Origin: Tolypothrix carrinoi HA7290-LM1
GTDB lineage: Bacteria > Cyanobacteriota > Cyanobacteriia > Cyanobacteriales > Nostocaceae
Reading direction: 5' to 3'
Length of the DNA stretch: 29,271 nt
Assembly (NCBI GenBank): GCA_019358935.1
Contig: JAHHIK010000100.1
Location: forward strand, 1 to 29,271
Positions 3,236-26,436 of the stretch are shown here, piece after piece. The position numbers and the translations under genes were made by a program. The notes beneath the pieces are model-generated. The model was not told the DNA's origin. It was given only the letters and a program-made list of their open reading frames with translations, and did not search any database. Positions within the stretch are counted from its first letter, which is position 1. Each line of letters starts with the position of its first letter.

Positions 3236-5770
3236 ATGAAACGTCCCAGCAAAGTGAAGAAGAAACAATCAAAATTATATCGTTCATTAATAACAACGTT
3301 ATTATTAGCTAACGGAATTTTTCAATTAGTCGCACCTGCATTAGCTGAAGGTACAGCGGCTGGTCAAGATATTAGCAACACCGCTACAGCAACTTACAAA
3401 GATGATAGTGGTAACGACCTTAACGCTACTTCTAATACAGTTACTGTCAAAATTGCAGAAGTTGCTGGTATTACCATTACAAAGCAGAATTATGAAGATG
3501 ATAACGGCGATGAAGTAGAACCGGGTGATAAACTTAAATTCAAATTTGAGATAAAAAACGTTGGAAACGACCCTACTAAGTTCCACATTCCTGATAAAAC
3601 CAACGTGGGTATCACTAACGGTACTGTTGATTCACTAGAGTACAGCTTAGATGGTACTAATTGGATATCAATTAACAACTCAGATACACCTTCAATTGAT
3701 GCTGGGAAATCTATTTTTGTCCGCGTTAATGTGACCGTCAAGAATGATGCTCAAGCTGATGATAAAGTTACCGTTACTCTTGGTAACACGGCTGTTGACC
3801 CTAATAATGCTGAACTGCTATTACAGAACCAACAACGGGATACAGTAGAAGCTGGTGACGTTTACACTTCAGATAATACAACCACACTTCCGCCGGGTGA
3901 AATTGATGGCAACCCGGCTAACGGTGTCCGTGAGGCTGGTGCTTTCCAAACTGCAACGGGAAAGGCGAAAAAATATGCTTTAGCGACGATTTTTAAGACG
4001 GAAACTGGCTATGAGAATGCTGGTACAGCCAAAGTTAATGATGATTCTTTTACTTATGACCTGACTCTGAAAGTAGAGGGAACAGATACCACAAAAAATA
4101 ATATTATTCCGGGGACATTAGTAGGTACAAAAATTAATTTAAACGGGACTGCCGATACCATTCGCATCTTAGTTTCTGATGCTATTCCCCAAGACACAGA
4201 ACTTGCATCTGTACCCACACCACCAACTGGTTGGATAGCAGTTTATACAGAAGATGCGGTGACAACTAACGCTAATCTTGCACAATGGAAAACATTCACA
4301 GCAGCGACTGATTTAAGTAAAGTCAAAAGGATTGGTTTCGTCAACGATCCAACAGCGTTTACTTCTATTGAACCGAACGCACCGGAAATCAAATTTCCGA
4401 TCAAGATAAAAGTTAAATCTGATGTCGGCAAATCATCAGTGACAGTAGAGAACATCGCTCAAATATTTGGTCAAACCAAAGATGGCACTACCTTAGTTTA
4501 CGATGAATCTGGTGATAACAGACCCAGCAACTATGGCGATGATGGCAGTTTACCGCCTGGTGCAACAGATGCCAATGGCGATAAGATTCCTGATAACAAT
4601 CCTACTGTAGACAGCGGTTATATTGACAATCCTGGAAGCTTACCCGAAAGTGACACTGATAAAGATAATAACAACAGCGGTAAAGGTCCAGGTGGTGAAC
4701 CGAATCGGTTCGTAATTTCTAATGAGGCAACAGTCAAGAATGGACCGAAAGATGCCCCAGAAGCTAAAGGTCCTACTGCTGATGACAAGGGTGATTATAC
4801 AAACAGTGACTTTACCAACAAGTCTACGAAAGTACCAGCAGATAAGTCTGCACCCGGAAGCAAATTTGACCCGGATTTTGTCACTTTCGAGAACACGGTA
4901 AAGAATACCAGTACTCTCACAAACGACATTTCGCTGCTTCCTACTTTATCCGCAGGTTTGCCTAAAGATACAATAGTTACTATTTCTTACGGTGGCGTTG
5001 ATAAGGTTTATACCTGGGATGGCACTAATTTTACTTCCCAATCTGATTACATCACTATTAAGGATGTGGCTGCGGGTGCAAGTGTTACCTACACCGTTAA
5101 AGTTGATTTACCAAACGACACCCCACTATCCACAGATACAGGCACAGGTTTCCCAGTTGCGATCGCTGCTTTTGTTGATGATGCAACTCCTGGTTTAGGC
5201 ACCACAGAACCAAGAAATATCACTATTGACCGAGTTTACACGGGTTTCTTGAAAATGGTGAAAGTGTCACGAATTTTACAAGGAGATGGTCCTGCTGTTG
5301 GTACAGGTCAGGATGTCTTTGAGTCAACACCAGCTGTCAATAATATAGATCCGAATCCTAGCGTTGCTGATGTCGTCAGAACACCGGCTCCAGGAAACAT
5401 TATTGAGTACCAAATTAGGTACAAGAATATTTCTCAAAATGAAGGTGACGGAAATGGCAATGTGCTTTTAAATGCGAAAAATGTTGAAATTACTGAAGAC
5501 GGTACAGCGGGTACGAATAACTGGGCAAAGGATAACGATGGCGACAAAAATCTAGACACCACTCATGTTTCAGGTCAAGCTATCGATACTAAAGGCAGTA
5601 TTGAATATTACGTTGGAGCAACTGCAACAACTGTAGATCCAGAAGTTCCAGGTGTTACTAAGTATGTAGACAAGGTAACAGACCAAGTTAAACCGGGTGA
5701 CGAAGGAACGTTCACATTTCAACGCAAGGTGTACAAACCAGAAGAGGCAAATACTCCGTCTGAAACATAA
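3236..5770 (+). CDS. Secreted DUF11-type multi-Ig protein; candidate major (shaft) subunit
   Basis: Sec signal ending APALA; N-terminal GTAAGQDISNTATATY..SNTVTV; DUF11 motifs PGDKLKFKFEIKNVGN and PGNIIEYQIRYKN; DxDxDG-like Ca-binding loops. Confidence 0.85.
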   Translation: MKRPSKVKKKQSKLYRSLITTLLLANGIFQLVAPALAEGTAAGQDISNTATATYKDDSGNDLNATSNTVTVKIAEVAGITITKQNYEDDNGDEVEPGDKLKFKFEIKNVGNDPTKFHIPDKTNVGITNGTVDSLEYSLDGTNWISINNSDTPSIDAGKSIFVRVNVTVKNDAQADDKVTVTLGNTAVDPNNAELLLQNQQRDTVEAGDVYTSDNTTTLPPGEIDGNPANGVREAGAFQTATGKAKKYALATIFKTETGYENAGTAKVNDDSFTYDLTLKVEGTDTTKNNIIPGTLVGTKINLNGTADTIRILVSDAIPQDTELASVPTPPTGWIAVYTEDAVTTNANLAQWKTFTAATDLSKVKRIGFVNDPTAFTSIEPNAPEIKFPIKIKVKSDVGKSSVTVENIAQIFGQTKDGTTLVYDESGDNRPSNYGDDGSLPPGATDANGDKIPDNNPTVDSGYIDNPGSLPESDTDKDNNNSGKGPGGEPNRFVISNEATVKNGPKDAPEAKGPTADDKGDYTNSDFTNKSTKVPADKSAPGSKFDPDFVTFENTVKNTSTLTNDISLLPTLSAGLPKDTIVTISYGGVDKVYTWDGTNFTSQSDYITIKDVAAGASVTYTVKVDLPNDTPLSTDTGTGFPVAIAAFVDDATPGLGTTEPRNITIDRVYTGFLKMVKVSRILQGDGPAVGTGQDVFESTPAVNNIDPNPSVADVVRTPAPGNIIEYQIRYKNISQNEGDGNGNVLLNAKNVEITEDGTAGTNNWAKDNDGDKNLDTTHVSGQAIDTKGSIEYYVGATATTVDPEVPGVTKYVDKVTDQVKPGDEGTFTFQRKVYKPEEANTPSET

Positions 5771-5780
5771 GTCCCGATTA

Positions 5781-5813
5781 CTCTCGTTCCCAGTCTCAGA
5801 CTGGGAACAAGAG
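5781..5813. repeat. Minimal CTCGTTCCCAG palindrome (same family as 677-789); possible attenuator or mRNA stabiliser after the first gene
   Basis: CTCTCGTTCCCAGTCTCAGACTGGGAACAAGAG hairpin 10 nt after the stop codon. Confidence 0.7.
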
Positions 5814-5841
5814 AAAACCACAAAATGAAGAGGTTAATAAA

Positions 5842-6390
5842 ATGAAGCGTGTTTCTATTGCAAGTATCAGCGCGATCGCTCTTTTAACAATACCATTAAT
5901 CGGTGCAATTCCAGGTATCCCAAATATGTGGGATATGGGCGAAGCCATCGCTCAAAATACCAAAAATCAAGGGCAATTACAATTGCGTCTGGAAGCAGAA
6001 AAGAAAATTCTCAAGCAAGAAAAAGTAACTTGGCAAGCATTGCAAGGGCAAGCTGTGGTGCAACCAGGAGATGTGCTGCGTTATACCGTTGCTGGAGAAA
6101 ATAAAAGCGATCGCCCAGTTAAAAATCTCACTCTCAATCAGCCGATTCCCAAAGGAATGCAGTATGTGCTGAAATCTGCCACCGCTACCAGTAACGCCAA
6201 AATTACCTACAGCATCGATTCTGCACGCACCTTTGTGGAAAATCCTACCATACAAGTCAAACTTGCCAACGGCAAAGTAGAAACCAAACCTGCACCAGCA
6301 ACAGCTTACACCCATATTCGGATGAATTTTAACTCTTCTGTGCCTGCCAGAGCGATCGTTAAGGGGACTTATGAAGTGCAGGTGCGATAG
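5842..6390 (+). CDS. Small exported single-domain DUF11-like protein
   Basis: GAGGT RBS; hydrophobic N-terminus; VQPGDVLRYTVAGEN..VKNLTLNQPIPKGMQYV..SA; YTHIRMNF; ends YEVQVR. Confidence 0.85.
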   Translation: MKRVSIASISAIALLTIPLIGAIPGIPNMWDMGEAIAQNTKNQGQLQLRLEAEKKILKQEKVTWQALQGQAVVQPGDVLRYTVAGENKSDRPVKNLTLNQPIPKGMQYVLKSATATSNAKITYSIDSARTFVENPTIQVKLANGKVETKPAPATAYTHIRMNFNSSVPARAIVKGTYEVQVR

Positions 6391-6565
6391 GGAGACAGGG
6401 GGACAAGGAGGACAAGGAGGACAAGGAGGACAGGGGGGACAAGGAGACAAGGGGACAAGGGGCACACGGGGCACACGGGGGACAAGGGGACAAGGAAAAT
6501 AATTCTTCTTTCCCCCCATCTCCCCATCTCCCCATCTCCCCATCTCCCCCTCCCCCCCTCTCCCA
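6390..6565. repeat. Tandem GGACAAG(G)-type repeats followed by CCCCATCT octamer repeats
   Basis: Directly visible purine-rich block (6390-6495) and pyrimidine-rich block (~6510-6565). Confidence 0.85.
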
Positions 6566-6603
6566 CTATTAATTTTCAGGGTATTTCAGAGGAGAAAAAT
6601 TAA

Positions 6604-8124
6604 GTGATTCGTTTGCGAAAAAAACGGCAGACGGCATCTAGTAATAACTGGTTGCGAAGGTTAACAGCAACCATTTTGCTGGGAAGCGTCTTACAAAGTT
6701 CTATACCAACAAAAGCGCAACAAGTTGATAATAAAGCTGCGCTTATACCTATTAGAAATCAAGCTACATATACTTATACAGATTCAGCTAATAATACATT
6801 TCAAGGAACTACTAGTCAGTTGAGTGCTAGTTCGAGATTAATTGACCCATTAGGCAGAATTTTAGGCTGTGGTGGACAGATTCTCCCGGATTATATAGGT
6901 TTTTCTGTTGGGTTGTATGAGCCTAATTCTAACGATCCAACGCAAATTGAATTAGGAAGATTGCTTTCACTGACAACAACAGAGTTACCTGAAATTCCTA
7001 ATAACAATATTCCTGGCGGATTAAAACCAAATATTAATAATAAAAATCCTTACGTTTTAGATAATCAGGAACCGCGAGGTACTTATAACTTTTTATTAGA
7101 TTCAAATAAAGGTCAAGCTATACCTGGGAAAACTTACATTTTAGTAGTTAATCCGCCGGCGAATTCTATTTATAGTCAGCGGCGAATTAAAATTAAAATT
7201 CTTGATAACTCCAATGATATTATCCGATATTCTGCTACTTCTTTGGATGGTCAGCCAATTAGTACTACAGGGGATACTAGCTTTACAGATACGGTTGCTT
7301 TCATCCCTAATGCAGAAACAATAGGACTGAATTTATTTGCCTTTCAATTTCAGACTGGTTTGTGTCAACCGAATCAGGTGCAGATTATTAAAACAGGCGA
7401 TCGCGCTACTGCTGAACCTGGAGATACAGTCATTTATCGCCTTTCAGTAAAAAATGTATCTGATATTAATTTTAAAAATACGATAGTTATTGACAGCTTA
7501 CCTTTAGGATTCAACTTTATAGACAAATCTGTGCGCGGAGAACTTGACGGGCAAGCAGTAGCCATTACTACCTCACATAATGGTTCAACGGTGACATTAC
7601 GCACAGAGGCAATTATCCCAACTGGAAAAGTGCTGAATATTGCTTATGCTGTCCAACTTACCACAGATGCGGTGCGGGGTTCAGGCAAGAATAGTGCGAT
7701 CGCCAATATGCAACGCGCTGACAACAATTTCGCTGTTAAAGATGGTCCGGCAACTCATCAGTTGAAAATTCGACCGGGAATCGTCTCCGATTGCGGTACC
7801 ATCATCGGTCGCGTATTTGTCGATAAGAACTTTGACGGGGAACAGCAACCTGGTGAACCGGGAGTTCCCAACGCAGTGATTTTTATGGAAGATGGCAACC
7901 GTATAACTACTGACCCTAACGGTTTGTTCTCCGTCGCTAACGTGTTACCAGGAAATCATACAGGTGTACTAGACCTCAGCAGCCTTCCGGGTTACAGCCT
8001 CGCTCCTAACTTAAAATTCCGCGAACGCAATAGCCAATCTCGGTTAGTGCGATTAGAACCAGGTGGTTTAGTACGTCTAAACTTCGCAGTCACCCCATCC
8101 TTTCGGGAGGAAGCTAAAAAATGA
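6604..8124 (+). CDS. Exported DUF11 + SdrD-B-like protein; candidate base/adaptor subunit
   Basis: GAGGAG RBS and GTG start; signal peptide; IRNQATYTY; KTGDRATAEPGDTVIYRLSVKN..IDSLPLGF..KNSA; GTIIGRVFVDKNFDGEQQPGEPGVPNA..TDPNGLFS. Stop overlaps the next start (ATGA). Confidence 0.85.
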   Translation: MIRLRKKRQTASSNNWLRRLTATILLGSVLQSSIPTKAQQVDNKAALIPIRNQATYTYTDSANNTFQGTTSQLSASSRLIDPLGRILGCGGQILPDYIGFSVGLYEPNSNDPTQIELGRLLSLTTTELPEIPNNNIPGGLKPNINNKNPYVLDNQEPRGTYNFLLDSNKGQAIPGKTYILVVNPPANSIYSQRRIKIKILDNSNDIIRYSATSLDGQPISTTGDTSFTDTVAFIPNAETIGLNLFAFQFQTGLCQPNQVQIIKTGDRATAEPGDTVIYRLSVKNVSDINFKNTIVIDSLPLGFNFIDKSVRGELDGQAVAITTSHNGSTVTLRTEAIIPTGKVLNIAYAVQLTTDAVRGSGKNSAIANMQRADNNFAVKDGPATHQLKIRPGIVSDCGTIIGRVFVDKNFDGEQQPGEPGVPNAVIFMEDGNRITTDPNGLFSVANVLPGNHTGVLDLSSLPGYSLAPNLKFRERNSQSRLVRLEPGGLVRLNFAVTPSFREEAKK

Positions 8125-11100
8125 AACGCAGACTGCAACCCGGATATGAAAAGCTCACGCAAAGGAGCCACTGCGTTGCGGGGGTTCCCCCCGTTGTAGC
8201 AAGTGGCGTCCGCAGAGACGCAAAGGGATTTATTCCGCAACGGGATTATTTGCATTTCCTCGTTGGTGCTACAGTCGCCGTCGTCAGCACAATTTTACAT
8301 CCAACCGTCGCAACAGCACAAACCGAAACCCCCCCCTCTGCGTCCTCCGCACGTTCTGCGGTTCAAATCCTCTCCCCTACCCCTGACACCATAGCCGACG
8401 ATCCAGCAACTTCAGTAATTTTGCAATTTCCTGCTCTCACCCAGGTAGAACTACAAGTAAACGGACAACTCGTAGACAAATCCTTAATTGGACGCACAGA
8501 AACCGATTCTAAAACTAACTTAACAACGCAGATATGGTACGGTGTTTCTTTAAAAGAAGGCGAAAATACTATATCTGTACAAGTCGCCGGAAGCACACCA
8601 GTAATAACGCGGGTGGTAGTACGGGGAGCGCCGAAGCGGTTGACAGTGGAAACCGTGGAAGCCCGTATTCCGGCTGATGCACGTTCCATAGCGAAAGTCA
8701 AGGGGCAATTAGTTGATGAAAATGGCAATCGCTCTAACCGTGATGCTGTTATCACTTTGATACCTTCTGCTGGGGAGTTTATCGGCGCCGACTTGAAACC
8801 TGACCAACCCGGATTTCAGGTAGAGGCGAAAAAAGGAGAATTTACAGCTAATCTGCGTTCTGATTTGAAGGCGCAAACTGTGCGAATTCGAGCCACAGCG
8901 AATGATTTGGAAGCTTTTACCCAAGTGCAATTTGCAACGGCGTTGCGTCCCAGTCTTGTTAGTGGAGTGGTGGATGTGCGTTTAGGTGCAAGAGGTACAG
9001 ATTATTACGGTAAATTGCGTGATTTCCTTCCCCCGGACAACGATAAAAGAACGCAATTAGATTTTCACTCAGCCGTATTTGCTACTGGGGCAGTTGGCGA
9101 TTGGTTGTTTACAGGTGCGTACAATAGCGATCGCCCTTTGAACGAAGACTGCAATTGTGATAATCGTCTGTTTAGAACTTACCAGTTCAGCGAGCAAAAT
9201 TATCCAGTTTACGGTGATAGTTCTACAGTTGATGCGATCGCTCCTTCGATTGATAGCGTGTATCTGCGCTTCGAGCGCTCCACTGGCAAGGCTAGCCCCG
9301 ATTATGCCATGTGGGGTGACTACAACACCGAGGAGTTTGCACAGCGATCGCAGCAATTTACAGCGATTACTCGTCAACTCCACGGCTTTAAGGCAAACTA
9401 CAATTTAGGAAACCTGCAATTTACGGGTTTATACGGAAACAATTTAGAAGGTTTTCAACGAGATACTGTTGCTCCTGATGGTACAAGCGGCTATTATTTC
9501 CTTTCTCGTCGGATTCTCATCCCTGGTAGCGAAAATGTCTTTATCGAGTTAGAAGAACTGAATCGTCCCGGTACTGTACTTCAACGCAAACAACTGAACC
9601 GGGGACCAGATTATGAAATTGACTACGATCGCGGTACTTTATTATTCCGTCAACCTATCCTGCGGACTGATGTTGATGACCAAGGACAAGTCTTGGTAAG
9701 ACGGATTGTTGTCACTTACCAATACGACAGCAAAGACTCAAACAGCAATATTTATGCAGGTCGTCTGCAATATAATTTTTCTCGCACCCTCAATTCTGAA
9801 AGTTGGTTAGCAGCAACTTACTTACAAGAAAACCACGGATTGCGTGATTTTCAACTTTACGGTGCGGATGCGATGATTTCTTTGGGTTCTCAAGCTAAAT
9901 TCATCGCTGAATATGCTCATTCTCAAAATGAGTCAGATGTGATGGGAATGGTTAGCGGTGACGCTTACCGTTTAGAAGCTGAAGCAAACATTACTAACGC
10001 TTTGCAAGGTCGTGCTTATTATCGCTTTGCCGATGCTGGTTTTGCGAATAACGCTACCATCAGCTTTGTACCCGGTCAAACTCGCTATGGAGCGCAGTTA
10101 ACTGGTAAACTTACTTCCAGTACAAATTTACGGGTGCAATATGACCATGAAGACAACTTTGGAATTGCACCCCAACCGCTGAATACCTTTGAGGAATTGT
10201 TTACACCCCGTTCTCAAGCGATTCCTGGTAGTAAAGTTGATAATTCCCTCTCAACGATTTCTGCCGGAATTCAACAACGCTTGGGTAAAGCGACTTTAGG
10301 TGTAGATTGGATTCATCGGGATAGACAAGACCGGATTAGTGGAAGTGGATTGGATAGTAATTCTGACCAGTTGCGATCGCGTCTTTCATATCCTCTCGCA
10401 AAAAATCTCACCTTCCAGGCACAAAATGAACTTACTCTCAGTTCTGATACCGATAGCGTTTATCCAGATCGGACTATTTTAGGGATAAATTGGGCAGCAA
10501 TTCCCGGTATCAATGTCAGTCTAGCGCAACAGTTCTACACACGCGGTCAGTTTGATGGTAACTCGATTACCAGCTTGAGTATTAATGGCGAACATAAACT
10601 TGGTAGAGATACGACAATTATCGGTCGTTATTCAATTTTAGGTGGTGCGAATGAACTGACAACTCAAGGAGCGATCGGACTAAATAACCGCTGGACTGTT
10701 GCTTCTGGATTGCATCTAAATCTAGCTTACGAACATGTATTTGGCGGTTTCTTTGGACGAACTGCGGCAGGTTCGCAATTTGCTCAACCTTTCACCGCAG
10801 GTCAATCAGCTTCTTCGATTGGCTTTAACGGAGGTGATAGTTACAGCGTCGGTTTAGAATATACTGATAATCCGCAGTTTCAAGCAAGCGCTCGTTACGA
10901 ACATCGTACATCCTCAAGTGGTTCCAATACCGTAATTTCCGCAGGTGCGGCGGGTAAAATTTCCCCCGCTCTCACAGCTTTGCTGCGCTATCAACAAGCA
11001 AATTCTTCTAATCAAAAACTGACAGGATTGGGAGATACAGTCAATCTGCGGATGGGTTTAGCTTACCGCGACCCGAACAACGATAAATTTAACGCCTTAT

Positions 11101-11711
11101 TGCGTTATGAATATCGCGAAAATCCGGCGGTAATTCCTGACACCATCCTTTTGGGTAGTGGTACGGGTTCGCAAGACCATACCTTTGCTATGGAAGGTAT
11201 CTACGCACCGAATTGGCAATGGGAATTTTATGGTAAGTATGCTTTGCGTAACAGTACTTCTTATTTAGCTAACGATTTGGTAGGAACTAGCACAGTAAAT
11301 CTAGCACAGTTACGGGCTACCTATCGCTTAGGATACAGCATGGATTTGGTGGGTGAAGCTCGCTGGATAGGTCAATCTAGCTACACAGAGACAGGTTTTC
11401 TTTTAGAAACAGGTTACTATCTCACACCTAACTTGCGACTTTCTGCGGGATACGTTTTTGGTAATATCGATGACCGAGATTTTTCCGGGACGCGATCTGC
11501 TGGGGGACCTTATTTAGGTTTAACGCTGAAACTGAACGAATTATTTGACGGGTTTGGATTGCAAAAAGTGGTGCCACCTCAGCAACAGGAGTCAGTGGTG
11601 AAACAACTGCGTAATTCAAAGTTAAAGAATAAAACAGAGAATTACTCCCTTCCCGCTCAAAGAATACCTAATTTAACGAACCGCCAAGGCGCCAAGGACA
11701 CAAAGGAATAG
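8121..11711 (+). CDS. Large predicted outer-membrane beta-barrel protein with N-terminal Ig-like domains
   Basis: Signal region ending TVATA; invasin-like IPADARSIAKVKGQLVDENG; YPVYGDSS; several hundred residues of alternating amphipathic strands with aromatic girdle residues (e.g. GYYLTPNLRLSAGY, GPYLGLTLK). Confidence 0.8.
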   Translation: MKRRLQPGYEKLTQRSHCVAGVPPVVASGVRRDAKGFIPQRDYLHFLVGATVAVVSTILHPTVATAQTETPPSASSARSAVQILSPTPDTIADDPATSVILQFPALTQVELQVNGQLVDKSLIGRTETDSKTNLTTQIWYGVSLKEGENTISVQVAGSTPVITRVVVRGAPKRLTVETVEARIPADARSIAKVKGQLVDENGNRSNRDAVITLIPSAGEFIGADLKPDQPGFQVEAKKGEFTANLRSDLKAQTVRIRATANDLEAFTQVQFATALRPSLVSGVVDVRLGARGTDYYGKLRDFLPPDNDKRTQLDFHSAVFATGAVGDWLFTGAYNSDRPLNEDCNCDNRLFRTYQFSEQNYPVYGDSSTVDAIAPSIDSVYLRFERSTGKASPDYAMWGDYNTEEFAQRSQQFTAITRQLHGFKANYNLGNLQFTGLYGNNLEGFQRDTVAPDGTSGYYFLSRRILIPGSENVFIELEELNRPGTVLQRKQLNRGPDYEIDYDRGTLLFRQPILRTDVDDQGQVLVRRIVVTYQYDSKDSNSNIYAGRLQYNFSRTLNSESWLAATYLQENHGLRDFQLYGADAMISLGSQAKFIAEYAHSQNESDVMGMVSGDAYRLEAEANITNALQGRAYYRFADAGFANNATISFVPGQTRYGAQLTGKLTSSTNLRVQYDHEDNFGIAPQPLNTFEELFTPRSQAIPGSKVDNSLSTISAGIQQRLGKATLGVDWIHRDRQDRISGSGLDSNSDQLRSRLSYPLAKNLTFQAQNELTLSSDTDSVYPDRTILGINWAAIPGINVSLAQQFYTRGQFDGNSITSLSINGEHKLGRDTTIIGRYSILGGANELTTQGAIGLNNRWTVASGLHLNLAYEHVFGGFFGRTAAGSQFAQPFTAGQSASSIGFNGGDSYSVGLEYTDNPQFQASARYEHRTSSSGSNTVISAGAAGKISPALTALLRYQQANSSNQKLTGLGDTVNLRMGLAYRDPNNDKFNALLRYEYRENPAVIPDTILLGSGTGSQDHTFAMEGIYAPNWQWEFYGKYALRNSTSYLANDLVGTSTVNLAQLRATYRLGYSMDLVGEARWIGQSSYTETGFLLETGYYLTPNLRLSAGYVFGNIDDRDFSGTRSAGGPYLGLTLKLNELFDGFGLQKVVPPQQQESVVKQLRNSKLKNKTENYSLPAQRIPNLTNRQGAKDTKE
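8164..8211. repeat. 48-nt in-frame palindromic small dispersed repeat in the barrel gene's leader
   Basis: GGAGCCACTGCGTTGCGGGGGTTCCCCCCGTTGTAGCAAGTGGCGTCC, nested among ACGCAAAG/CGCAGAG units; translated as part of RSHCVAGVPPVVASGVR. Confidence 0.75.
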
Positions 11712-11800
11712 GACTTACGCACACTCTACAAACTCTTGGCGCACTTGGCGTCTTGGCGGTTCGATAAATCAAGGTTTATGACAATTTTTGCGTAAGTCCT
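11710..11800. mobile_element. MITE with AGGACTTACGCA terminal inverted repeats
   Basis: AGGACTTACGCA (11710-11721) and TGCGTAAGTCCT (11789-11800). The same terminus starts the IS701-like element at 28969. Confidence 0.75.
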
Positions 11801-11920
11801 GAGGAAGAAAAAAGAGGATAGGTAATCTTGAACCGGCAAGGAATTAATCGCTTTAAAAAGGTAGATTTTATGAGATTTCGGGAAACCTAAACAAGGTATG
11901 GGGAAGTTAAGAGCGATCGC

Positions 11921-14900
11921 ATGAGTGATTATGTTGTAACTAATAAAACAAAGATGAATAAACTTGCTAAATTAAATAACCGTAAAAGTATACCCTGGCA
12001 ACTGATAGCAACATCCGCGATCGCGATGTCTCTATTGCAAGCATTACTGACAACTCCCGCAAAAGCGCAAACTGTTTCTATTAGTAAAAATGCTAACGTC
12101 AACACTGTACCGTCTGGGCAAACTTTCGATTACTCACTCAAATACAGTTGTATCAGCGCTGGTCCTAGTTGCCAAAACGCTGTAATTACCGACGTGCTGC
12201 CATCAGAAGTGCAGTATGTCAGTACTATATTGGGTATAAACCCAGCAGACATTAAACACGATTCAAAGACTCGTAAACTTACAATCACTTTCACACAGCC
12301 AATTGCAGCAGGTGATACGAGTGAAATCACTGTGAAAGTAAAATTCCCCGCTGGTACTACTCCTAACAATACCATTGCTCAAAATAAAGCCAACATCAAT
12401 ATTAGTAATGGCTCATCAGCAACAAGTAGCACCGTATCTGTGATTGCAACCGCAGAAAACAAGTTTACCGTAGAAAAACCCCCACTCAGTACCACACCAA
12501 CGCTGGATCAAAATGTAACTTACACGGTAAGATTTAAAAATCCTACTGGCAGTGACATTGGCGGACTTAACCTCAACAATGCCCAATTGGTGGATAAGTT
12601 ACCCCCAGGAGCGGTATTCGTTTCTGCTAGCGATAATGGTGTGTACAATTCTGCTAACAACACTGTTACTTGGGCAATGGGCGACTTGAAAGTAGACAAT
12701 AACAACAAGGAGTATAATCGCACTGTAACCGTTAAATATCCCTCCTCTAGCTTTACCACTGCTAGCACTATAAAGAACATTGTTGAAGGTTACGGTCAGT
12801 CGGTGGGGGAAAACTCATCTAAGTTTATAGACACGGATAATATTAGTCATGGCTTTGCAAATCCCACACCCAACAGCGATATAGATAAGGGTAAGAGTGG
12901 TAGTGGTAATAATTATGCGATCGGACAAACTGTAAATTATACTTTGTCGGCGAAAAACACAGGCAACGTTCCCTTAGATAGCTTCGTTATTACAGATAAC
13001 ATTCCATCACAAGTCACAGTATCAAGTATCACTACAGGAATTTATAACAATCCGCCTTCTAATCTAATTATTCGTTATAAAACTAATCTCAAGAGTAATT
13101 TTACTAATTGGTCTGGAAGTCCCTTTAATCCTGCTATCAACCAAACCTTAAATGTCAGTGATTTGGGGCTGGCAACAAATGAATATATTACGGCAATTCA
13201 GTATGATTACGGTAGCGTTACCGTCGGTTTTAGCCCTTCAACCACGCCCAGAATTAACGCAACCATTAATAGTAACCTAACTGACGGTCAAAGCTTCCAA
13301 AACTGTGCAGACCTCAGCCGAACTTATGCTGGTACAACACCCACACCAAAATCTTCTTGTACAAAAGTAACAATTATTGACCCGCGCTCCATCATTGACC
13401 CAGGAAAAAGGATTGATACCAATTCTACAACAGGCACACCTGCACCTTATCTACCTAATGGCAATGTTCGCTTTCGCCTAGAAGTACGCAATACTTCTAG
13501 CAGCGGTGGTGCATTAACTGACCCAATTATTGCTGATTTGCTACCACCTGAGTTTGATTATGTTCCTGGAAGTTGGTCATTTGATAAGAAGGAAAATGCT
13601 AACGCTCCGACACCAGAATTTGAAGAAATCCCCAACTACAAAAATACTGGTCGTACCCTGTTGCGTTGGAAATTTACTGGAGCTTCTTCTTTCAGCTTTC
13701 CTGGCGATGGTAATAAATTATCATCATACATCTACTTCAAAGCGAAAGTCAAACCAGGGACACCGCCTACGAATTATACCAACACGGTAGCGATAACATC
13801 CAACAGTTCACCGTTTGTGTGTTCTGATAACAAAAGTCCTGGTACAAGCTTAGATACACTGGATTTAGATAATGATGGTAGCAGCAACGATACTTTATGT
13901 ACAGCTAATACTTCGGTAACTGTCAGTTCCCAAGCGGCTTTGACTTCACAAAAATTAGTTAGGGGTGAGTTAGATAATGATTATGTGGGGTATCCAACTA
14001 GAGGAAACTCTGTAGTAGGGGGACGAACTGATTACAAACTGACCATTACCAATCCTGGAAACGTGCCAATCAAAAATATCACCGTTGTGGATATTTTACC
14101 CTTCATCGGTGATACTCAAGTCGCTAATCCCTCAATTTCTCGTAATTCCGAGTGGCGTCCGAATCTCGTCAATGCAGTTACAGTCAGCGATTCTCGCATT
14201 AAAGTATATTATAGTACTGCAACTAATCCCTGCCGTCCGGAGGTGGTGTCTTCGGGTCCTGCGGGTTGTGTTAATGACTGGTCACTGACTCCCCCCGGTG
14301 ACATCACAAAAGTGCAAGCGCTAAAGTTTGATTTGGGTACCATCATCCTCAAACCACAGGAAAGTTTATCCCTCACCTGGCTGATGCAAGTTCCAACCGA
14401 TGCCAAAATAAATACGGACGCTTGGAACTCTTTCGCTTATGTGGGAACCCGTACCGATAACGATCAACCCCTCGTACCTGCGGAACCGGGTGCAGTGGGT
14501 GTTGACATAAAACCAGCAAAAGCAAAGTTATTATTGGTGAAACGCATTACCCGCATCAACAACCAAGACGTAACTGATATTGTGGATGGTCGCAGCGACG
14601 TTTCTATTAACGATCCGAATTATGTACCAGAACCCTATGCAACTGATGATAACGATCCAAAATGGACTGCTGGCTACTTGCGCGGATTGATTAATGCCAG
14701 CACTGTCAAACCAGGAGATGAGTTAGAATACACGATCTATTTTCTTTCTAGTGGCAATGTTCCCATCAAGAATGTTAGTATTTGTGACTTGATACCAGCT
14801 AATAGCAGCTTTGTTGAGAATGCCTTCGCAGCAGGTTCTGGTATTGCTTTGGAGATTAACTCCACATCAACTAATTTAACAAATATCAACGATAGCGATC

Positions 14901-15109
14901 GCGCTGAATACATCCCACCTAATACAATCGCTCCAGGTGCTTGTAACAAAGCTGACATCGCTAACAAGGTTACTCCGCCAACACAACTTCAAGCCGCTGA
15001 TAATAAAACAGGAGTAGTACTAGTTAATGTTGTAACTGGTTCAACAACTTTGCCTGAACCGAATAAACCTGCATACGGTTTCATTCGCTTCCGCGTCAAG
15101 GTAAAGTAA
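11921..15109 (+). CDS. Secreted tandem DUF11/isopeptide-domain protein (about six Ig domains); candidate tip/minor subunit
   Basis: Signal peptide ending PAKA; repeated K...Y.l...N...(I/V)xDx(L/I)P...N pattern (ITDVLP, LVDKLP, ITDNIP, IADLLP, VVDILP, ICDLIP); ends YGFIRFRVKVK. The start could be 11954. Confidence 0.85.
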   Translation: MSDYVVTNKTKMNKLAKLNNRKSIPWQLIATSAIAMSLLQALLTTPAKAQTVSISKNANVNTVPSGQTFDYSLKYSCISAGPSCQNAVITDVLPSEVQYVSTILGINPADIKHDSKTRKLTITFTQPIAAGDTSEITVKVKFPAGTTPNNTIAQNKANINISNGSSATSSTVSVIATAENKFTVEKPPLSTTPTLDQNVTYTVRFKNPTGSDIGGLNLNNAQLVDKLPPGAVFVSASDNGVYNSANNTVTWAMGDLKVDNNNKEYNRTVTVKYPSSSFTTASTIKNIVEGYGQSVGENSSKFIDTDNISHGFANPTPNSDIDKGKSGSGNNYAIGQTVNYTLSAKNTGNVPLDSFVITDNIPSQVTVSSITTGIYNNPPSNLIIRYKTNLKSNFTNWSGSPFNPAINQTLNVSDLGLATNEYITAIQYDYGSVTVGFSPSTTPRINATINSNLTDGQSFQNCADLSRTYAGTTPTPKSSCTKVTIIDPRSIIDPGKRIDTNSTTGTPAPYLPNGNVRFRLEVRNTSSSGGALTDPIIADLLPPEFDYVPGSWSFDKKENANAPTPEFEEIPNYKNTGRTLLRWKFTGASSFSFPGDGNKLSSYIYFKAKVKPGTPPTNYTNTVAITSNSSPFVCSDNKSPGTSLDTLDLDNDGSSNDTLCTANTSVTVSSQAALTSQKLVRGELDNDYVGYPTRGNSVVGGRTDYKLTITNPGNVPIKNITVVDILPFIGDTQVANPSISRNSEWRPNLVNAVTVSDSRIKVYYSTATNPCRPEVVSSGPAGCVNDWSLTPPGDITKVQALKFDLGTIILKPQESLSLTWLMQVPTDAKINTDAWNSFAYVGTRTDNDQPLVPAEPGAVGVDIKPAKAKLLLVKRITRINNQDVTDIVDGRSDVSINDPNYVPEPYATDDNDPKWTAGYLRGLINASTVKPGDELEYTIYFLSSGNVPIKNVSICDLIPANSSFVENAFAAGSGIALEINSTSTNLTNINDSDRAEYIPPNTIAPGACNKADIANKVTPPTQLQAADNKTGVVLVNVVTGSTTLPEPNKPAYGFIRFRVKVK

Positions 15110-15741: not shown

Positions 15742-16185
15742 TTACGGCACAACCGTAAATTTCACAGTATAGCTATAATTACCGGCTCGCAGAGAACGAC
15801 CTCTATCTATAGCAAAATCAATCGTTAAAGGAGTAGTTCCCGCAGGTAAAGCTAAGGGAGCATCACCATTTTTAGTAGAGCTACCAGAGGGAATTGTGAC
15901 AGTTGCAACAGCAGATACCGGGGTGAATTCGGGTCCTGCAACTTGAATTGGTGCAGATACACTTATATTTGCCGATTGGCTACAAGTCGCATCAATTTTA
16001 GTTGGAGAACCACCAGCAGAAGCCAAGGTGGTTAATTTCTTTGGTAGAGTACCACCATTCGTGACTAACTGACCGGGAGTAGCTTGAGAAAAAGTGCATA
16101 AAGGTTCGGAAGCGATCGCACTTTTGAATAGAGTTAAATTAGCAGTGATAATTATAAGCGAGATAAATAGCGATCGGCGAATCAT
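15742..16185 (-). CDS. Chaperone-usher pilin-like subunit lacking an N-terminal extension
   Basis: Signal MIRRSLF..SAIA; CTF..PGQL; second Cys in IDATC; C-terminal AGNYSYTVKFT strand; GAGGA RBS. Confidence 0.75.
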   Translation of the reverse strand: MIRRSLFISLIIITANLTLFKSAIASEPLCTFSQATPGQLVTNGGTLPKKLTTLASAGGSPTKIDATCSQSANISVSAPIQVAGPEFTPVSAVATVTIPSGSSTKNGDAPLALPAGTTPLTIDFAIDRGRSLRAGNYSYTVKFTVVP

Positions 16186-16244
16186 TTTGCTTTTACTTTC
16201 CTCTGGAAATATCTATTTATCAAAATTTGTTTAATCTTTGACTA

Positions 16245-16724
16245 CTAAGGAGATGCGGTAAGAGTTACTGTAAAGCTATATTTTCCAGCGGAAATTTTAT
16301 TACTTCCGTTATCTGCTTTCATATTGACTATAATTTTCCCCTCCTGAGTATCTGCTGGTATAGTACCGGTAGAACCGTCAGAACTAACGTTTATATTATT
16401 AGGCAGGTTGGTACTAGTTGCTGTTGCGGTTAGCTGTTGTGGATCTAAAAACTTTGTTGTACCATCTGTTTGTTCAGGCTTAGAAATAGTGAGAGTAGCA
16501 GCATTATTGCAATCTATTAACACACTTGCAGGTGTTCCACCATTTTCGCTCTGGAGAATAGTACCACCAGAATTAAGAATCAACTCTCCTGGCACAGCGT
16601 TATAAAAAGTACAGTTACCTGTAACTGTACCACTAGCACCAGCATCTTCAGCATAAGCTTTGGTGGCGAAGGTAACAGTACTTGCAAGTATCAAAGCTGA
16701 ACTCATTAGCAAGTGACGAATCAT
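16245..16724 (-). CDS. Chaperone-usher pilin-like subunit (Csu/SCPU-like)
   Basis: Likely start MIRHLL at 16724; signal ending AYA; SGTVTGNCTF..PGEL, VLIDC, AGKYSFTVTLT. Confidence 0.8.
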   Translation of the reverse strand: MIRHLLMSSALILASTVTFATKAYAEDAGASGTVTGNCTFYNAVPGELILNSGGTILQSENGGTPASVLIDCNNAATLTISKPEQTDGTTKFLDPQQLTATATSTNLPNNINVSSDGSTGTIPADTQEGKIIVNMKADNGSNKISAGKYSFTVTLTASP

Positions 16725-16859
16725 GCTTGAATATCCATGTATATTCGGACAAGATATCAACCGTTATAGGTTAACTTCAATCCACAAGCTTTGTGTTGAG
16801 TGAAATAACGGATTTTTATTCACAGGCTATCTACGTGAATCATCTATAATACGATGCCC

Positions 16860-16990: not shown

Positions 16991-17397
16991 AAGCCTCAAA
17001 TTTTTATTTGAATATCGACAAGTTAAGTACAAATACGTAAAAACATATAATTTATAATTTTGCAATTCACAATACAGGTTAGATTATTTTGAAGTTATTA
17101 AATAAAAAGCTACTTAAATTCATCAACTAATTCAAAATCGCTCCACAAACTCTTCAGAACAAACATAGTGTAACTACTGAGGCACTGATTTATCTCTCAA
17201 GTTGATAATTATTAGCTAATGGCTATTAGTTGTATTTTACGTAGCTTTGAAATAATTCAATATTTGTTTGGCAAATGGAGTTCATATAGATTTTATTTTA
17301 AAAAATAAAAAATTGATAATAAAAACTTTGATTTCTTGTCGAGAAATGTACGTTGAGTTTGCATACATAGTATCAATAACAAGTAGAGGTGTTTCAT

Positions 17398-20300
17398 ATG
17401 GTAACTTTAACTGGTACGCAATACAGTGAAGATTTTGACGGTATTGGCTCAGGTCTACCACTTGGCTGGCTGATATACACAGGTGCAACTAACTCATCTT
17501 TGGGAAATTCAGCAACTTGGACACAAGCAACAGCAACTTGGGGTGAAACTAACGGTAGATTCAAAAACTTTGCAGCAAACGATAGTGGTCTTGCATCAAA
17601 TGCTTCAGACATCGTGCAAAACTCAGCTACAGACCGAGCATTAGGTATCCGTCAGACAACCGGTTTTGGAGATCCTGGTGCATCGTTCGTTTTCAACCTT
17701 GACAACACACTTGGCTTTCAGAATTTTGGGCTTTCTTTTAAAGCTCAGATGCTGAGTGTTCAACCTCGTTCTACAACTTGGAGTGTTGATTATAGAGTTG
17801 GAAATTCTGGTAATTTCAATGTTCTTGAAACTTATTCAGATCCAAATGCATTTGGCTCTTCTACTCTAAATTTATTAAATTTTGGCACTGATATTAACAA
17901 TCAGTCTAACCAAGTTCAAATCCGAATATCTGCACTCTCAGTCAGTACAGGTAGTAGCAATCGAGACAGTTTTGGTATTGATGATTTTCAACTGACTTAT
18001 AGCTCTGTACCACCAAGTAATCCTCCTGTGGTGACTTTGCCTGGTACGGCTATCTCTTATACCGAAAATGCTTCAGCTACGATTCTCGATGCAAGTGCGA
18101 CTGTCACAGATATTGATTCACCCAACTTCAACAATGGTAGCCTCACTGTTCGTTTCACGACAGGAGGTAGTGCTGATGACCGTATAAACATTCGTAATGA
18201 AGGTACTGGGGCAACTCAGATTAATCTTGATGGCAGAGAAATTTATTACGGTAGCAACTTAATTGGTAACTTCATAGGCGGTATTGGCACTGAGAGTTTG
18301 GTAATTAGCCTGAATACAAATGCCACTCCAGAAAGGGTTCAGGCTTTATTACGTAACATTACTTATGTAAACGTTTCTCAAAATCCTTCAACAAGCAATC
18401 GTACTGTCGAAGTAGTATTGAATGATGGCAATAACGGCATCAGTACAGCGATTACAAAGACAATTGCAGTTGCCAAAGTAAATGATGCACCGCTAATTGG
18501 TGGAACTACTGTTCTTTACGATGGCTCTTTGGGAGGAACACCAGACAATCAAAATAAAGGATTAACATATTATGGACCTGGTATAACTCCCACCTATAGT
18601 AGTGGTGTTACAAATCTGAATACACTCGGAAATAATAGCTTCCAAGCAGGATTTTCTAACTATTCAACATCTGGAACCAATCTTACCTCATTTACACTTG
18701 ACCGTACCACTGGTTACACCATTAGTTTCTCTGCTAAAGTCACAGATGAAGCACGCGCTGCAACAGCTAATAAAAACAACGATGGTAAAGATGACCGTGC
18801 TGGTTTTAGTGTTATTGCTATTAGTAGTGATGGCAAGTTTGGTATTGAATTAGGTTTCTGGAAAGACCGTATTTGGGCACAAGATGATGGCACTACTCAG
18901 AAAAATCCTTCCTTGGAACCAGATGCTGCACCAACTAGCAATTTCCGCACCTTGTTTACTCAAGCAGAAGGTGTAGGCTTCACCACCACTAGTCTAGTGA
19001 ATTATGACCTGACTGTGCTGGGTGATACCTATACTTTATTTGCTGATAGTAATGCAATCCTCAGTGGTAAATTACGGGATTATAGTGCTTTTACTCATCC
19101 AGTTCTTCCAGTTCTTGATGTCTACGAAAAACCCAACTTTATTTTCTTTGGCGATAATACACCTTCGGCACGAGCGAATATTGATTTGAATCGGGTAGCG
19201 GTAACTACTAATAGTATCCCCAATCTGACAATTGACGAAGATAGTATTACAGGACCAATTCCTTTTAAAATTCGTGACTTTGAAACTGTTGCTAATTCCC
19301 TAACGGTTAATTTTTCTTCATCGAATACAGCTTTAGTTCCAAATAATAATATTTCTTATAGTGTTACAGAAGTCAATCCCACTCGCACTTTTACTGTTGT
19401 ACCTGCTGCAAATCAAAATGGCACAGCAACAATTACCTTGAGTGTCAGCGATGGTATTACGACAACTCAGCGTACCTTTGATATCACTGTTAATCCTGTC
19501 AACGATCGCCCCACTTTCACCATTGGCAATAACCAAAGCGTAAAAGCAGGTGCAGGACAACAAGCGATCGCAGGTTGGGCAAGCGGCTTTTATTCTGGTG
19601 CTGATAATGAATCAGGGCAAGGTATCAAAAACTATATAGTTGATTTCGTCAACTCTTCAGACAGTCAATTTTTTGATGGTACGCCAACAATCGATTCTTC
19701 TACAATCAACCCTTTAACAGGCGACCTTAAATATACTCCAACTAGCAACACAAGTATTACCAGCACTACTGTAAAATTTAAAGTCCAAGTCCAGGATAAC
19801 GGTGGTACTGCTAATGGTGGTGTCGATATTTCAACTGTGCAAACTTTCACAATCACCGTTAATCCCACAGCTACTAACTCAATGAATGGTACGCCAAATG
19901 CTGATACTAATTTAATGGGAACGGATCAAAGCGATCGCATTTCCGGTTTAGATAATGACGACACCATTTTTGGTGGTTTAGGTAGCGATCGCATTTTTGG
20001 CAATAATGGTAATGATACCCTCTACGGCGATTTAGAAACTATACCCACTTATGGCGTTAATTTTACGATAGATGACACAATTGCTGGCGGTTTAGGTAGC
20101 GATCGCATTTATGGCAATGGTGGCAATGACAAGCTTTATGGTGACGAGGGAGATGACCAAATCTGGGGTGGAGATGGCAATGATGAAATCTGGGGCGGTT
20201 ATGGCAATGATATCCTTAATGGTGGTCTTGGTAAAGATGCTTTTGTCTTAGTTAGAGGTCAGGGAGCAGATATTATCATGGATTTTACAAGTGAAGATGT

Positions 20301-20448
20301 GCTTGGTTGTGCTGGTGCTTTGAAATATAGTTCGTTGATATTTACTAAGCAAAACGGCGATACTTTAATTACTGATATAAGTACAAATCAGCTATTGGCA
20401 ACCCTCAAAAACTTTACCGGAACTCCTAATAATGGAGGTCAGTTTTAA
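17398..20448 (+). CDS. RTX (hemolysin-type Ca-binding) adhesin with cadherin-like and lectin-like domains; probable type I secretion substrate
   Basis: AGAGGT RBS and ATG at 17398; no signal peptide; cadherin-like motifs (YTENAS..D.DS, VNDAP, TVNPVNDRPTF); C-terminal GGxGxD nonapeptides (GGLGSDRIF, GNNGNDTLY, GGDGNDEIW, GGLGKDAF) and GADIIMDF. Confidence 0.9.
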   Translation: MVTLTGTQYSEDFDGIGSGLPLGWLIYTGATNSSLGNSATWTQATATWGETNGRFKNFAANDSGLASNASDIVQNSATDRALGIRQTTGFGDPGASFVFNLDNTLGFQNFGLSFKAQMLSVQPRSTTWSVDYRVGNSGNFNVLETYSDPNAFGSSTLNLLNFGTDINNQSNQVQIRISALSVSTGSSNRDSFGIDDFQLTYSSVPPSNPPVVTLPGTAISYTENASATILDASATVTDIDSPNFNNGSLTVRFTTGGSADDRINIRNEGTGATQINLDGREIYYGSNLIGNFIGGIGTESLVISLNTNATPERVQALLRNITYVNVSQNPSTSNRTVEVVLNDGNNGISTAITKTIAVAKVNDAPLIGGTTVLYDGSLGGTPDNQNKGLTYYGPGITPTYSSGVTNLNTLGNNSFQAGFSNYSTSGTNLTSFTLDRTTGYTISFSAKVTDEARAATANKNNDGKDDRAGFSVIAISSDGKFGIELGFWKDRIWAQDDGTTQKNPSLEPDAAPTSNFRTLFTQAEGVGFTTTSLVNYDLTVLGDTYTLFADSNAILSGKLRDYSAFTHPVLPVLDVYEKPNFIFFGDNTPSARANIDLNRVAVTTNSIPNLTIDEDSITGPIPFKIRDFETVANSLTVNFSSSNTALVPNNNISYSVTEVNPTRTFTVVPAANQNGTATITLSVSDGITTTQRTFDITVNPVNDRPTFTIGNNQSVKAGAGQQAIAGWASGFYSGADNESGQGIKNYIVDFVNSSDSQFFDGTPTIDSSTINPLTGDLKYTPTSNTSITSTTVKFKVQVQDNGGTANGGVDISTVQTFTITVNPTATNSMNGTPNADTNLMGTDQSDRISGLDNDDTIFGGLGSDRIFGNNGNDTLYGDLETIPTYGVNFTIDDTIAGGLGSDRIYGNGGNDKLYGDEGDDQIWGGDGNDEIWGGYGNDILNGGLGKDAFVLVRGQGADIIMDFTSEDVLGCAGALKYSSLIFTKQNGDTLITDISTNQLLATLKNFTGTPNNGGQF

Positions 20449-20586: not shown

Positions 20587-21036
20587 GTGTCCGCCAAAGA
20601 TGCTTTTCATTATGTTGTCAAAACAGCCCTTCAGAAAGATGGCTGGTTAATTACTCATGACCCATATCCCCTGCAAGCTGGTACATTTGACCTTGCTATT
20701 GACCTCGGTGCCCAAAAAGTGATTGCTGCTCAAAAGCAAGGGCTGGAAATTGCTGTGGAAATCAAAAGTTTCCTCGGTCCGTCCAAGATTTCCGAATTTT
20801 ACGGAGCATTGGGACAATTTATTACGTATAGGGCTGCTTTACGCAATCAAGAGCCAGAGCGTATATTGTATCTGGCAGTCTCCAGCGATATTTACGATCG
20901 CCTTTTTGCAACTGTATTTATTCGAGAACTTGTTGAGCAAAATCAAGTTTACCTGGTAATATACAATATTGATCGGGAGGTGATTGAACGATGGCTACCG
21001 TCGATGAGTACCGACGACATATCCAACACCTATTAA
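20587..21036 (+). CDS. xisH: XisH family protein
   Basis: MSAKDAFH..VKTALQKDGWLITHDP, DLGA, IAVEIKSF, ALGQF..YR, LYLAV, EVIERW. Confidence 0.93.
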   Translation: MSAKDAFHYVVKTALQKDGWLITHDPYPLQAGTFDLAIDLGAQKVIAAQKQGLEIAVEIKSFLGPSKISEFYGALGQFITYRAALRNQEPERILYLAVSSDIYDRLFATVFIRELVEQNQVYLVIYNIDREVIERWLPSMSTDDISNTY

Positions 21037-21323
21037 CTGAACAGGCAAAGTTAGTTTGGGATGAACGCATCCAGGCTGAAACTATTTTCGATATCGAACG
21101 CGATCGCTATCAACTAGTCTACGTTGGCTGGCGTGAGTCTAAGCGATTATATGGTACTGTTCTTCATCTTGACATAATTGATGGCAAAATTTGGATTCAG
21201 CAGGATGGTACTGAAGTTGGTATTGCCAACCAATTGGTGGAACTCGGTGTCCCCAAGCAAGACATTGTTTTGGGGTTTGACCCTCCAAAGATGCGTCATT
21301 ACACTGAATTTGCTGTGGGATAA
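20991..21323 (+). CDS. xisI: XisI family protein
   Basis: FDIERDRYQL..VGW, LHLDIIDGKIWIQQDGTE.GIA..L...GVPKQDIVLGF..P..R.YTEFAVG; overlaps xisH. Confidence 0.95.
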   Translation: MATVDEYRRHIQHLLTEQAKLVWDERIQAETIFDIERDRYQLVYVGWRESKRLYGTVLHLDIIDGKIWIQQDGTEVGIANQLVELGVPKQDIVLGFDPPKMRHYTEFAVG

Positions 21324-24652: not shown

Positions 24653-24660
24653 GCTAACTT

Positions 24661-25536: not shown

Positions 25537-25619
25537 TTTAATTTGATTCTCCTAGCATTTAAAGCTTATAAAAACCTGCTTGTTTTATTGTTAATATCGG
25601 GCTTTTCGTCCTCCATAAT

Positions 25620-25737
25620 CCGCCAGAGACTTTAAGTCTCTGGCTCATAGCGAAAGTCCGTTAAAACGGACTGAATTTAATTTTTAGTCGGTTTAAACCG
25701 ACTTTTGCTATTAGCCCGGAAATTAATTTCCGGGCGG
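25620..25737. repeat. Four-hairpin composite palindromic element (REPIN/MITE-like)
   Basis: CCGCC..GGCGG ends enclose CCAGAGACTTTAAGTCTCTGG, AGTCCGTTAAAACGGACT, AGTCGGTTTAAACCGACT and GCCCGGAAATTAATTTCCGGGC. Confidence 0.75.
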
Positions 25738-26424: not shown

Positions 26425-26436
26425 AATAACTACCGC

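Follow-up and report, generated by a model that had tools for sequence, protein, structure and literature searches.

A split DUF11/CLIPPER domain in a five-gene cyanobacterial operon and its possible role in a donor-hairpin fibre

Can a surface fibre be built from proteins that each lack the end of a domain and find it at the start of their neighbour? The question is raised by five genes in a 29,271-nucleotide stretch of DNA from the cyanobacterium Tolypothrix carrinoi HA7290-LM1 (assembly GCA_019358935.1, contig JAHHIK010000100.1, positions 1 to 29,271, forward strand), referred to below as the window. An earlier note, made from the sequence alone, suggested that these genes encode a pilus whose DUF11 subunits exchange a hairpin and are then sealed by isopeptide bonds. 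The missing and the additional pieces are two parts of one domain, and it is quite likely that the proteins form a fibre by joining them.

The five neighbouring open reading frames (ORFs) lie where they were first noted, all on the plus strand. Their products are labelled A to E in gene order.

3236..5770, plus strand: A, 844 amino acids, candidate shaft subunit; signal peptide, donor hairpin, three complete Ig/CnaA-like domains, incomplete acceptor
3347..3463, plus strand: A donor hairpin, residues 38-76; Asn48 codon at 3377-3379
3968..4726, plus strand: A domain 2 (DUF7925); complete, CnaA-like, internal triad K254/D315/N406
5243..5734, plus strand: A acceptor domain, residues 670-833; Lys676, Glu754; last two strands missing
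5842..6390, plus strand: B, 182 amino acids, candidate donor-capping chaperone or non-covalent cap; single incomplete domain with K54 and Q100
6604..8124, plus strand: C, 506 amino acids, candidate base or terminator; donor hairpin, Ig region, DUF11, SdrD_B-like domain
6733..6843, plus strand: C donor hairpin, residues 44-80; Asn52 codon at 6757-6759
8121..11711, plus strand: D, 1196 amino acids, candidate platform or anchor; N-terminal Ig domains and a predicted outer-membrane beta-barrel
11921..15109, plus strand: E, 1062 amino acids, candidate tip; five complete isopeptide-type domains and an incomplete acceptor; N-terminal part variable
14519..15106, plus strand: E acceptor domain, residues 867-1062; Lys874, Asp956

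Judged by hydropathy, all five proteins have a signal-peptide-like start, with a basic N-terminus followed by a hydrophobic segment. Scans for promoters and terminators at the operon gave results at chance level. Matches to DUF11/TIGR01451 are found in B, C and E, with a further one in E to the isopeptide-domain model TIGR04226; the match of A is to DUF7925. The cut-offs of both PF01345 and TIGR01451 are passed by C and E, and that of TIGR01451 alone by B. The acceptor of A has no Pfam match; it is recognised, at 94%, by the tandem-DUF11 profile described below.

Among 301 genomes of the phylum, 31 have a strong match to A, and the same 31 have a strong match to B; four more have a distant B. 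Conservation was read from 20 loci of positive genomes, chosen for contig room, together with the best 80 of 354 scan loci. Because the latter are mostly from Nostoc, they are not independent. After three shorter ORFs of 101 were dropped, the set of A homologues numbered 98. The order A-B-C-D-E, or an expansion of it, is found at 72 of the 100 loci; one locus is rearranged and five are incomplete.

Two parts of one domain

A, B and E each end in a DUF11/CLIPPER-type domain that lacks its last two strands, and A and C each start with the two strands that the acceptor domains are missing. The crystal structure of DUF11, also called CLIPPER, is described as CnaA-like, with a Lys-Asn bond between the first and the penultimate strand and a nearby Asp presumed to be the catalyst (PMC12617251, accessible text).

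Evidence for the split is provided by a profile of unrelated proteins. A search of 50%-identity representatives with B returned mostly long tandem DUF11 proteins, which then served as an independent profile (built from 300 of the 1234 repeat units in 128 unrelated proteins) and as a control. The conserved Lys, Asp and Asn of this profile are columns 9, 43 and 101. Residues 38-76 of A fall on columns 96-126 (probability 77%, E 2e-5), where N48 coincides with the conserved Asn, and this hairpin alone, among 60 windows along A, reaches past column 106. The C-terminal end of A falls on columns 73-91, and those of A and B both stop at about column 90. Since the hairpin and the C-terminal end of A are complementary halves of one profile, they support the split-domain reading. 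The hairpin of C matches that of A at 97% (E 1e-10) and the tandem profile weakly (E 0.03).

The hairpin of A is not part of the domain that follows it. Domain 1 is complete without it, residues 74-244 aligning with residues 17-176 of 7WRK (Z 8.8). In the full-length model of A the hairpin forms strands 45-55 and 61-72, with a predicted local distance difference test score (pLDDT) of 55-65. Domain 2, in contrast to the acceptors, covers the whole CLIPPER chain 9IFR (18-140; Z 8.8, root-mean-square deviation 2.7, 122 residues). It contains the DUF7925 match (residues 249-433), a family for which PMC12617251 lists a predicted triad, and its K254, D315 and N406 are kept in 96, 97 and 97 of the 98 homologues. 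The AlphaFold2 model of B aligns with residues 21-109 of 9IFR only (Z 7.9, root-mean-square deviation 2.0). A domain 2 and B also align with the CnaA domains of pilins, and here the model of B stops at residue 307 of RrgB and 289 of SpaD, about ten residues short of the isopeptide Asn given for each in Table 1 of PMC12617251 (Asn318 and Asn299). A Foldseek search with full-length A returned generic tandem-Ig matches only.

The structure 7WRK, matched by A domain 1 (3455-3967), is TTHA1873 of Thermus thermophilus. Thermus was the sole control genome with a DUF7925 match, and a related operon may be present there. The search listings on TTHA1873 offered no functional lead.

E shows both forms of the domain in one chain. 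The earlier note had described complete Lys/Asp/Asn domains in this protein, and five were found, with triads K56/D91/N155, K186/D225/N286 and K323/D359/N461 in domains 1-3 and K496/D539/N621 and K678/D724/N836 in domains 4-5. Aligned with hmmalign, all five Asp fall on the expected columns, together with four of the Asn and two of the Lys. The sixth domain has K874 and D956 and ends at the strand that precedes the hairpin. Out of 114 Pfam DUF11 positions it covers 9-85, whereas domain 1 covers 2-111. The terminal domains of A, B and E all end before the Asn strand, and the full Lys/Asp/Asn set is seen in internal domains. Global alignment of the E acceptor to the tandem profile was discarded, being misregistered through insertions. 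Two candidates for a bond partner within this acceptor were also set aside: Asn1015, which hmmalign places on the Asn column, is unconserved, and N1028, the sole invariant Asn, lies before an earlier strand as read from the sequence.

The Asn strand is included in 3065 of 3123 internal units of the control proteins and in 24 of their 34 terminal units. Six tandem DUF11 proteins with an acceptor-like end (P0140, P0190, P0212, P0214, P0219 and P0225), most of them without an evident signal peptide, suggest that the split domain may be used in further systems too.

From two parts to a proposed fibre

The proposed mechanism is a secreted head-to-tail fibre formed by donor-hairpin complementation of the split CnaA-like domain. 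All five proteins would cross the inner membrane by their signal peptides. The last domain of E would accept the N-terminal hairpin of A, and the last domain of A that of the next A, repeatedly, so that E would be the tip and A the shaft. The hairpin of C would close the last A, and C, as the base, would hold the fibre at the barrel D. The order E-A-C is deduced from which protein has a donor and which an acceptor. At each joint the Lys and the Asp or Glu of the acceptor would meet the Asn of the donor, and an autocatalytic Lys-Asn bond would seal the two chains. By capping hairpins reversibly, B would keep A from locking prematurely. Where a locus lacks A and B, the product would be a short C-E adhesin. 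A likely function is adhesion to surfaces or cells, with exchangeable tips.

The earlier note had assigned the same roles to A (donor and acceptor), E (acceptor only) and C (donor only), and these stand: the last domains are incomplete, the hairpin lies outside its neighbouring domain, and the residues concerned are invariant. N48, K676 and E754 of A are each present in 98 of 98 homologues. K676 is the sole invariant Lys among the 56 of A and is better kept than the protein's internal triad. The chain of A ends one residue past its last strand in 92 of 98. Both K874 and D956 of E are found in 76 of 76 proteins, with the chain end one or two residues after the last strand in every one; within the last domain no other of the 12 Lys or of the 14 Asp is invariant. 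N52 of C is likewise invariant (98/98), as is its internal triad K263/D297/N363 (98/98).

Docking, which the earlier note had proposed as a check alongside conservation and gene order, also favoured the joint. A predicted complex of residues 668-836 and 38-76 of A scored 0.72, and the best of three controls 0.01. The mark used is passed by 116 of 157 solved pairs and by 2 of 215 mismatched pairs. Contacts agree to at least 93% between runs, and the pLDDT of the partner is at least 78. Residues 50-55 of the docked hairpin run antiparallel to 747-753, beside E754, and K676 contacts residues 66, 67 and 69. Covariation gives little more than expected, with 15 of the top 50 hairpin couplings in the acceptor versus about 11 (210 sequences, about 45 effective).

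Could the hairpin close the last domain of its own molecule instead, giving a ring or a stored, self-complemented form with no intermolecular joint? The complex test, which was run on the authors' own alignment, is blind to the difference between the two. The hairpin has a pLDDT of 78-84 when the acceptor is supplied, compared with the lower value in the full-length chain, and three domains separate the two ends of A. Closure within one chain would also leave the acceptor-only E, the donor-only C and the loci lacking A unexplained, and is very unlikely.

A second alternative keeps the donor-acceptor fibre and makes its joints non-covalent or partly covalent (for example E-A and not A-A), the conserved residues being structural. 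The earlier note had pointed to an Asp in the complete domains of E. The acceptor of E has D956, A has Glu754 and B has Gln100. The CnaA-like rows of Table 1 in PMC12617251 all have Asp, and some DUF11 domains are described there as lacking the bond. The N48-K676 pair is not among the 25 listed contacts of the A-A complex, and the output gives neither a Lys-Asn distance nor side-chain geometry. A purely structural role does not account well for K676 standing alone among so many Lys residues of A, beyond the conservation of the internal triad, nor for the loss of Lys or acid in every B examined. This alternative is unlikely, and an autocatalytic Lys-Asn lock at the joints of the proposed fibre is fairly likely.

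Besides the Glu of A, the silence of the docking output on bond geometry and its blindness to cis and trans, several points weigh against a covalent fibre. Likeness to solved folds tends to carry both parts of a split domain through the complex test, and A-A is the one joint that was modelled. No fibre, ladder or cross-link has been observed; the case is made by sequence and predicted docking. Of the 34 unrelated tandem DUF11 proteins, six stop at the strand where the acceptors stop; no donor was found in their chains, which come with no gene context, and they may use the same trick elsewhere or tolerate an open edge. E is not adjacent at 22 of the 100 loci, and at 12 of these a gene on the opposite strand follows D. 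Some loci appear to work without any polymer. The Glu of A, the want of an observed fibre and these shaft-less loci are the main doubts.

B, the predicted barrel and loci without a shaft

B is an acceptor in shape that appears to have been disarmed. The earlier note had counted it among the proteins that stop before the hairpin, without giving it a role; the incomplete domain is there and the catalytic set is absent. Lys and acid never occur together in B at the 100 loci, which have K/Q in 95, L/D in two, Q/Q in two and L/Q in one. Nor do they in 22 cluster representatives (which may overlap with those loci) or in six further homologues. Homologues with the Asp have lost the Lys. That one or the other is lost in every B examined suggests that the pair matters chemically. 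B also accompanies A, the subunit that would repeat itself, and this is what one would expect of a cap against premature locking. B is probably a non-covalent cap or chaperone. The narrower proposal of a donor chaperone, capping the hairpins reversibly, is nearly an even bet. Clusters similar to B are most frequent in Pseudomonadota and Acidobacteriota.

C consists of the donor hairpin, an Ig region, a complete DUF11 domain and an SdrD_B-like domain, with no acceptor. Its gene overlaps that of D by 4 bases in the window, and the same 4-base overlap occurs at 91 of 95 loci. In D, N-terminal Ig domains are followed by a long beta-rich C-terminal part, as read from the sequence. A count of amphipathic strands gave 28 in residues 541-1150; as the Ig part is equally dense, the count is no proof of a barrel. 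One homologue, P0391 (1289 amino acids, 80% identical), is presumably All3289 of Anabaena PCC 7120, judging by its length. The C-terminal region of All3289 is discussed as a possible outer-membrane anchor of a large soluble domain (PMC9705863, accessible text). Anabaena PCC 7120 appears to carry the operon. D is a candidate channel, assembly platform or mere anchor.

Relatives of D fall in clusters named automatically as outer-membrane proteins or 'TonB-dependent receptor', with no supporting Pfam family. On a reading that follows this name, D would serve uptake as a TonB-dependent or porin-like barrel, and each DUF11 protein would be an independent, monomeric adhesin or a protein of substrate capture. 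However, no TonB receptor barrel or plug family is found among the 13 Pfam families matched by 23 D homologues at E 0.05. Such a barrel would also leave the coupling of C to D, and the matched missing and extra strands, unexplained, and this explanation is hardly credible. An usher of the PapC/FimD type is absent too from the Pfam matches of those 23 homologues, the NCBIfam matches of D and the matches of a PDB sequence search.

A gene for 550-800 amino acids, lacking in the window operon, often follows D (at L033, L039, L047, L048 and most shaft-less loci). Many of these proteins end in what reads as an OmpA-like domain, a candidate tether to the cell wall.

The N-terminal parts of the 76 E proteins form 15 clusters, the acceptor being retained, and that of E in the window is unmatched among them. 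A donor is also present in two of the 76. Locus L037 (163-5196) has two extra genes past the tip, each with an A-type donor hairpin and an E-type acceptor; these are candidate adaptors or alternative shaft subunits. Second A-type genes were seen on contig C47 of genome G234 (L011), in a genome with a single B match, and at L047, a rearranged locus, which has two A genes.

Eight of the 301 genomes have a shorter type of locus, C-barrel-E, that lacks A and B, and the source genome has two such loci elsewhere. All eight genomes in which a C-type gene was found without A or B are 99-100% complete. Six of them have the order C'-D'-(OmpA-like)-E', in one the stretch is incomplete, and one has a C-D fusion with no E in range. 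The two in the source genome (L131, 4397-14840, and L132, 4563-14955, on contigs C14 and C30 of G000) each have a hairpin-bearing C', a barrel D', an OmpA-like protein and a tip E'. In the L131 tip the acceptor domain is broken by a repeat-rich, frame-shifting insert. By eye, an Asn hairpin stands directly before a complete DUF11 domain in 17 of 17 C' proteins; the donor profiles scored just two of these 17, a further point against the scheme. Lys and Asp are retained in 18 of 18 E' proteins.

These loci bear on a third alternative, in which C-A-E is a short stalk of fixed stoichiometry, with one or a few A, and B is a non-covalent end cap. The core system evidently needs no polymer, and A, with four domains, is large for a major pilin. 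Against this, A has both halves, which dock with each other, so that its sequence holds nothing that would prevent repetition; B is found where A is, and none was found in the eight shaft-less genomes. A short stalk is improbable, and the repeating shaft is retained here as the preferred reading.

Related genes extend beyond these genomes. Four loci of a non-oxygenic lineage of the phylum, and one on a Deinococcus plasmid, have genes for B, for a protein that is both donor and acceptor, and for a C-like protein; D lies within range at most of them. All five have Asp as the acid of the acceptor, and the Lys can be seen in three. It is conceivable, and put forward tentatively, that the system is a separate and widespread class of diderm pilus. 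Its naturally split CLIPPER domain would connect every joint and seal itself there. B, as a disarmed acceptor, would be a 'reverse chaperone' shielding the donor and not the groove, and D, a giant barrel of no known class, would both assemble and export the covalent chain. Tips might be swapped, or supplied from other loci, via the shared acceptor.

Known fibres and the rest of the window

The system is real and conserved and, as far as the literature was searched, undescribed. No description of the split domain or the operon was found; most subscription papers and supplements lie outside the coverage of the search and could hold proteomics of PCC 7120. Judged by those defining features that can be tested, it fits neither chaperone-usher nor sortase nor type V pili.

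PapH is a donor-only terminator of chaperone-usher pili. These pili (type 1, P), as described in the accessible text of PMC13721041, resemble the present scheme in an acceptor-only tip, a donor-plus-acceptor shaft, a large barrel and a small periplasmic helper. They differ in that a single, non-covalent donor strand is used and that the chaperone donates to the groove, whereas B is itself an acceptor. In both, an N-terminal donor completes the fold of a neighbour, here by prediction with two strands and not one. The PapD family has no match; B is one incomplete CnaA-like domain, and no other candidate for a two-domain chaperone lies between A and E.

Sortase pili have CnaA and CnaB folds and Lys-Asn chemistry, but their subunits are linked by an enzyme. 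Sortase families have no match among the 11 window proteins scanned, and the chains of A, B and E finish at or just past a beta-strand, with no sorting signal with a membrane anchor. SpyTag/SpyCatcher is an engineered split pilin domain that re-forms its bond. Such engineered pairs are artificial, whereas the split described here is natural and conserved. The RrgA Jo.In complex 5MKC is among the structural matches of B. Type V pili (Fim/Mfa) are made from lipoprotein precursors and use a C-terminal donor strand; here the donor is N-terminal and no Cys follows the hydrophobic segments.

Precedents for a donor strand with an isopeptide lock in a sortase-free covalent fibre exist in two systems. 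BsaA of Clostridium perfringens, of the TasA family, has an N-terminal donor Asn and a recipient Lys and Glu, and its sortase-free 'exchange and lock' is backed by mutants (bioRxiv 10.1101/2024.11.04.621531, accessible text). Donor Asn and recipient Lys and acid are conserved here as in TasA/BsaA fibres. As described in that preprint, BsaA belongs to a monoderm, has a TasA-like fold and is linked to SipW, unlike the window system, with no split CLIPPER, outer-membrane barrel or B-like protein. Neither TasA nor SipW gave a family match in the window proteins scanned or appeared among the structural matches listed, which does not exclude such a fold. The archaeal thread Saci_0406 (PMC9715654, accessible text) also combines donor-strand complementation, an intermolecular isopeptide bond and a donor-only cap; its bond, however, runs between Asn and the N-terminal amine of the next subunit but one, in a different fold.

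Closely related, too, is CLIPPER/DUF11 itself (PF01345; 9IFR; PMC12617251), with its CnaA-like fold and Lys/Asp/Asn triad. Complete copies are found in A, C and E, but the domain is described in the stalks of monomeric fibrillar adhesins, and here it is split across chains. Two cyanobacterial systems are set apart by their descriptions: HesF (PMC4390845), a type I-dependent adhesion protein without a signal peptide, and the CT pilus (PMC12397347), whose cluster includes an outer-membrane protein and whose pilin is not a donor-strand Ig domain. Tafi, the haloarchaeal donor-strand fimbriae of PMC11821415, the tandem DUF11 hook of a Litorilinea preprint, and the subjects of PMC13297417, PMC10406281 and an abstract on the Elr pilus are different systems.

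If the proposed mechanism is true, it would add an unrecognised class of pilus to the cyanobacteria (the five-gene form being present in 31 of the 301 sampled genomes) and to other diderms. It would give a role to a barrel mis-named 'TonB-dependent receptor' and would mean that no sortase is needed to build covalently locked fibres across an outer membrane. Protein engineering would also gain a family of natural connector pairs, each based on a split isopeptide domain.

A second group of secreted proteins is encoded downstream, on the minus strand (15742-16760 and 21440-26958). Its five beta-rich members (173, 291, 1070, 171 and 147 amino acids) are laid out like a pilin, chaperone, usher and minor pilins. 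Four of the five have no Pfam or NCBIfam family, and PDB sequence searches with two were blank. This cluster may be another pilus system, unrelated to the first and interrupted by an inserted block. Within it lies a gene (17389-20448) for a 1019-amino-acid exoprotein with choice-of-anchor Y and cadherin-like domains and RTX repeats. Positions 20587-21323 and 27566-28789 hold what we take to be a pair of genes similar to XisH/XisI and one similar to TnpB.

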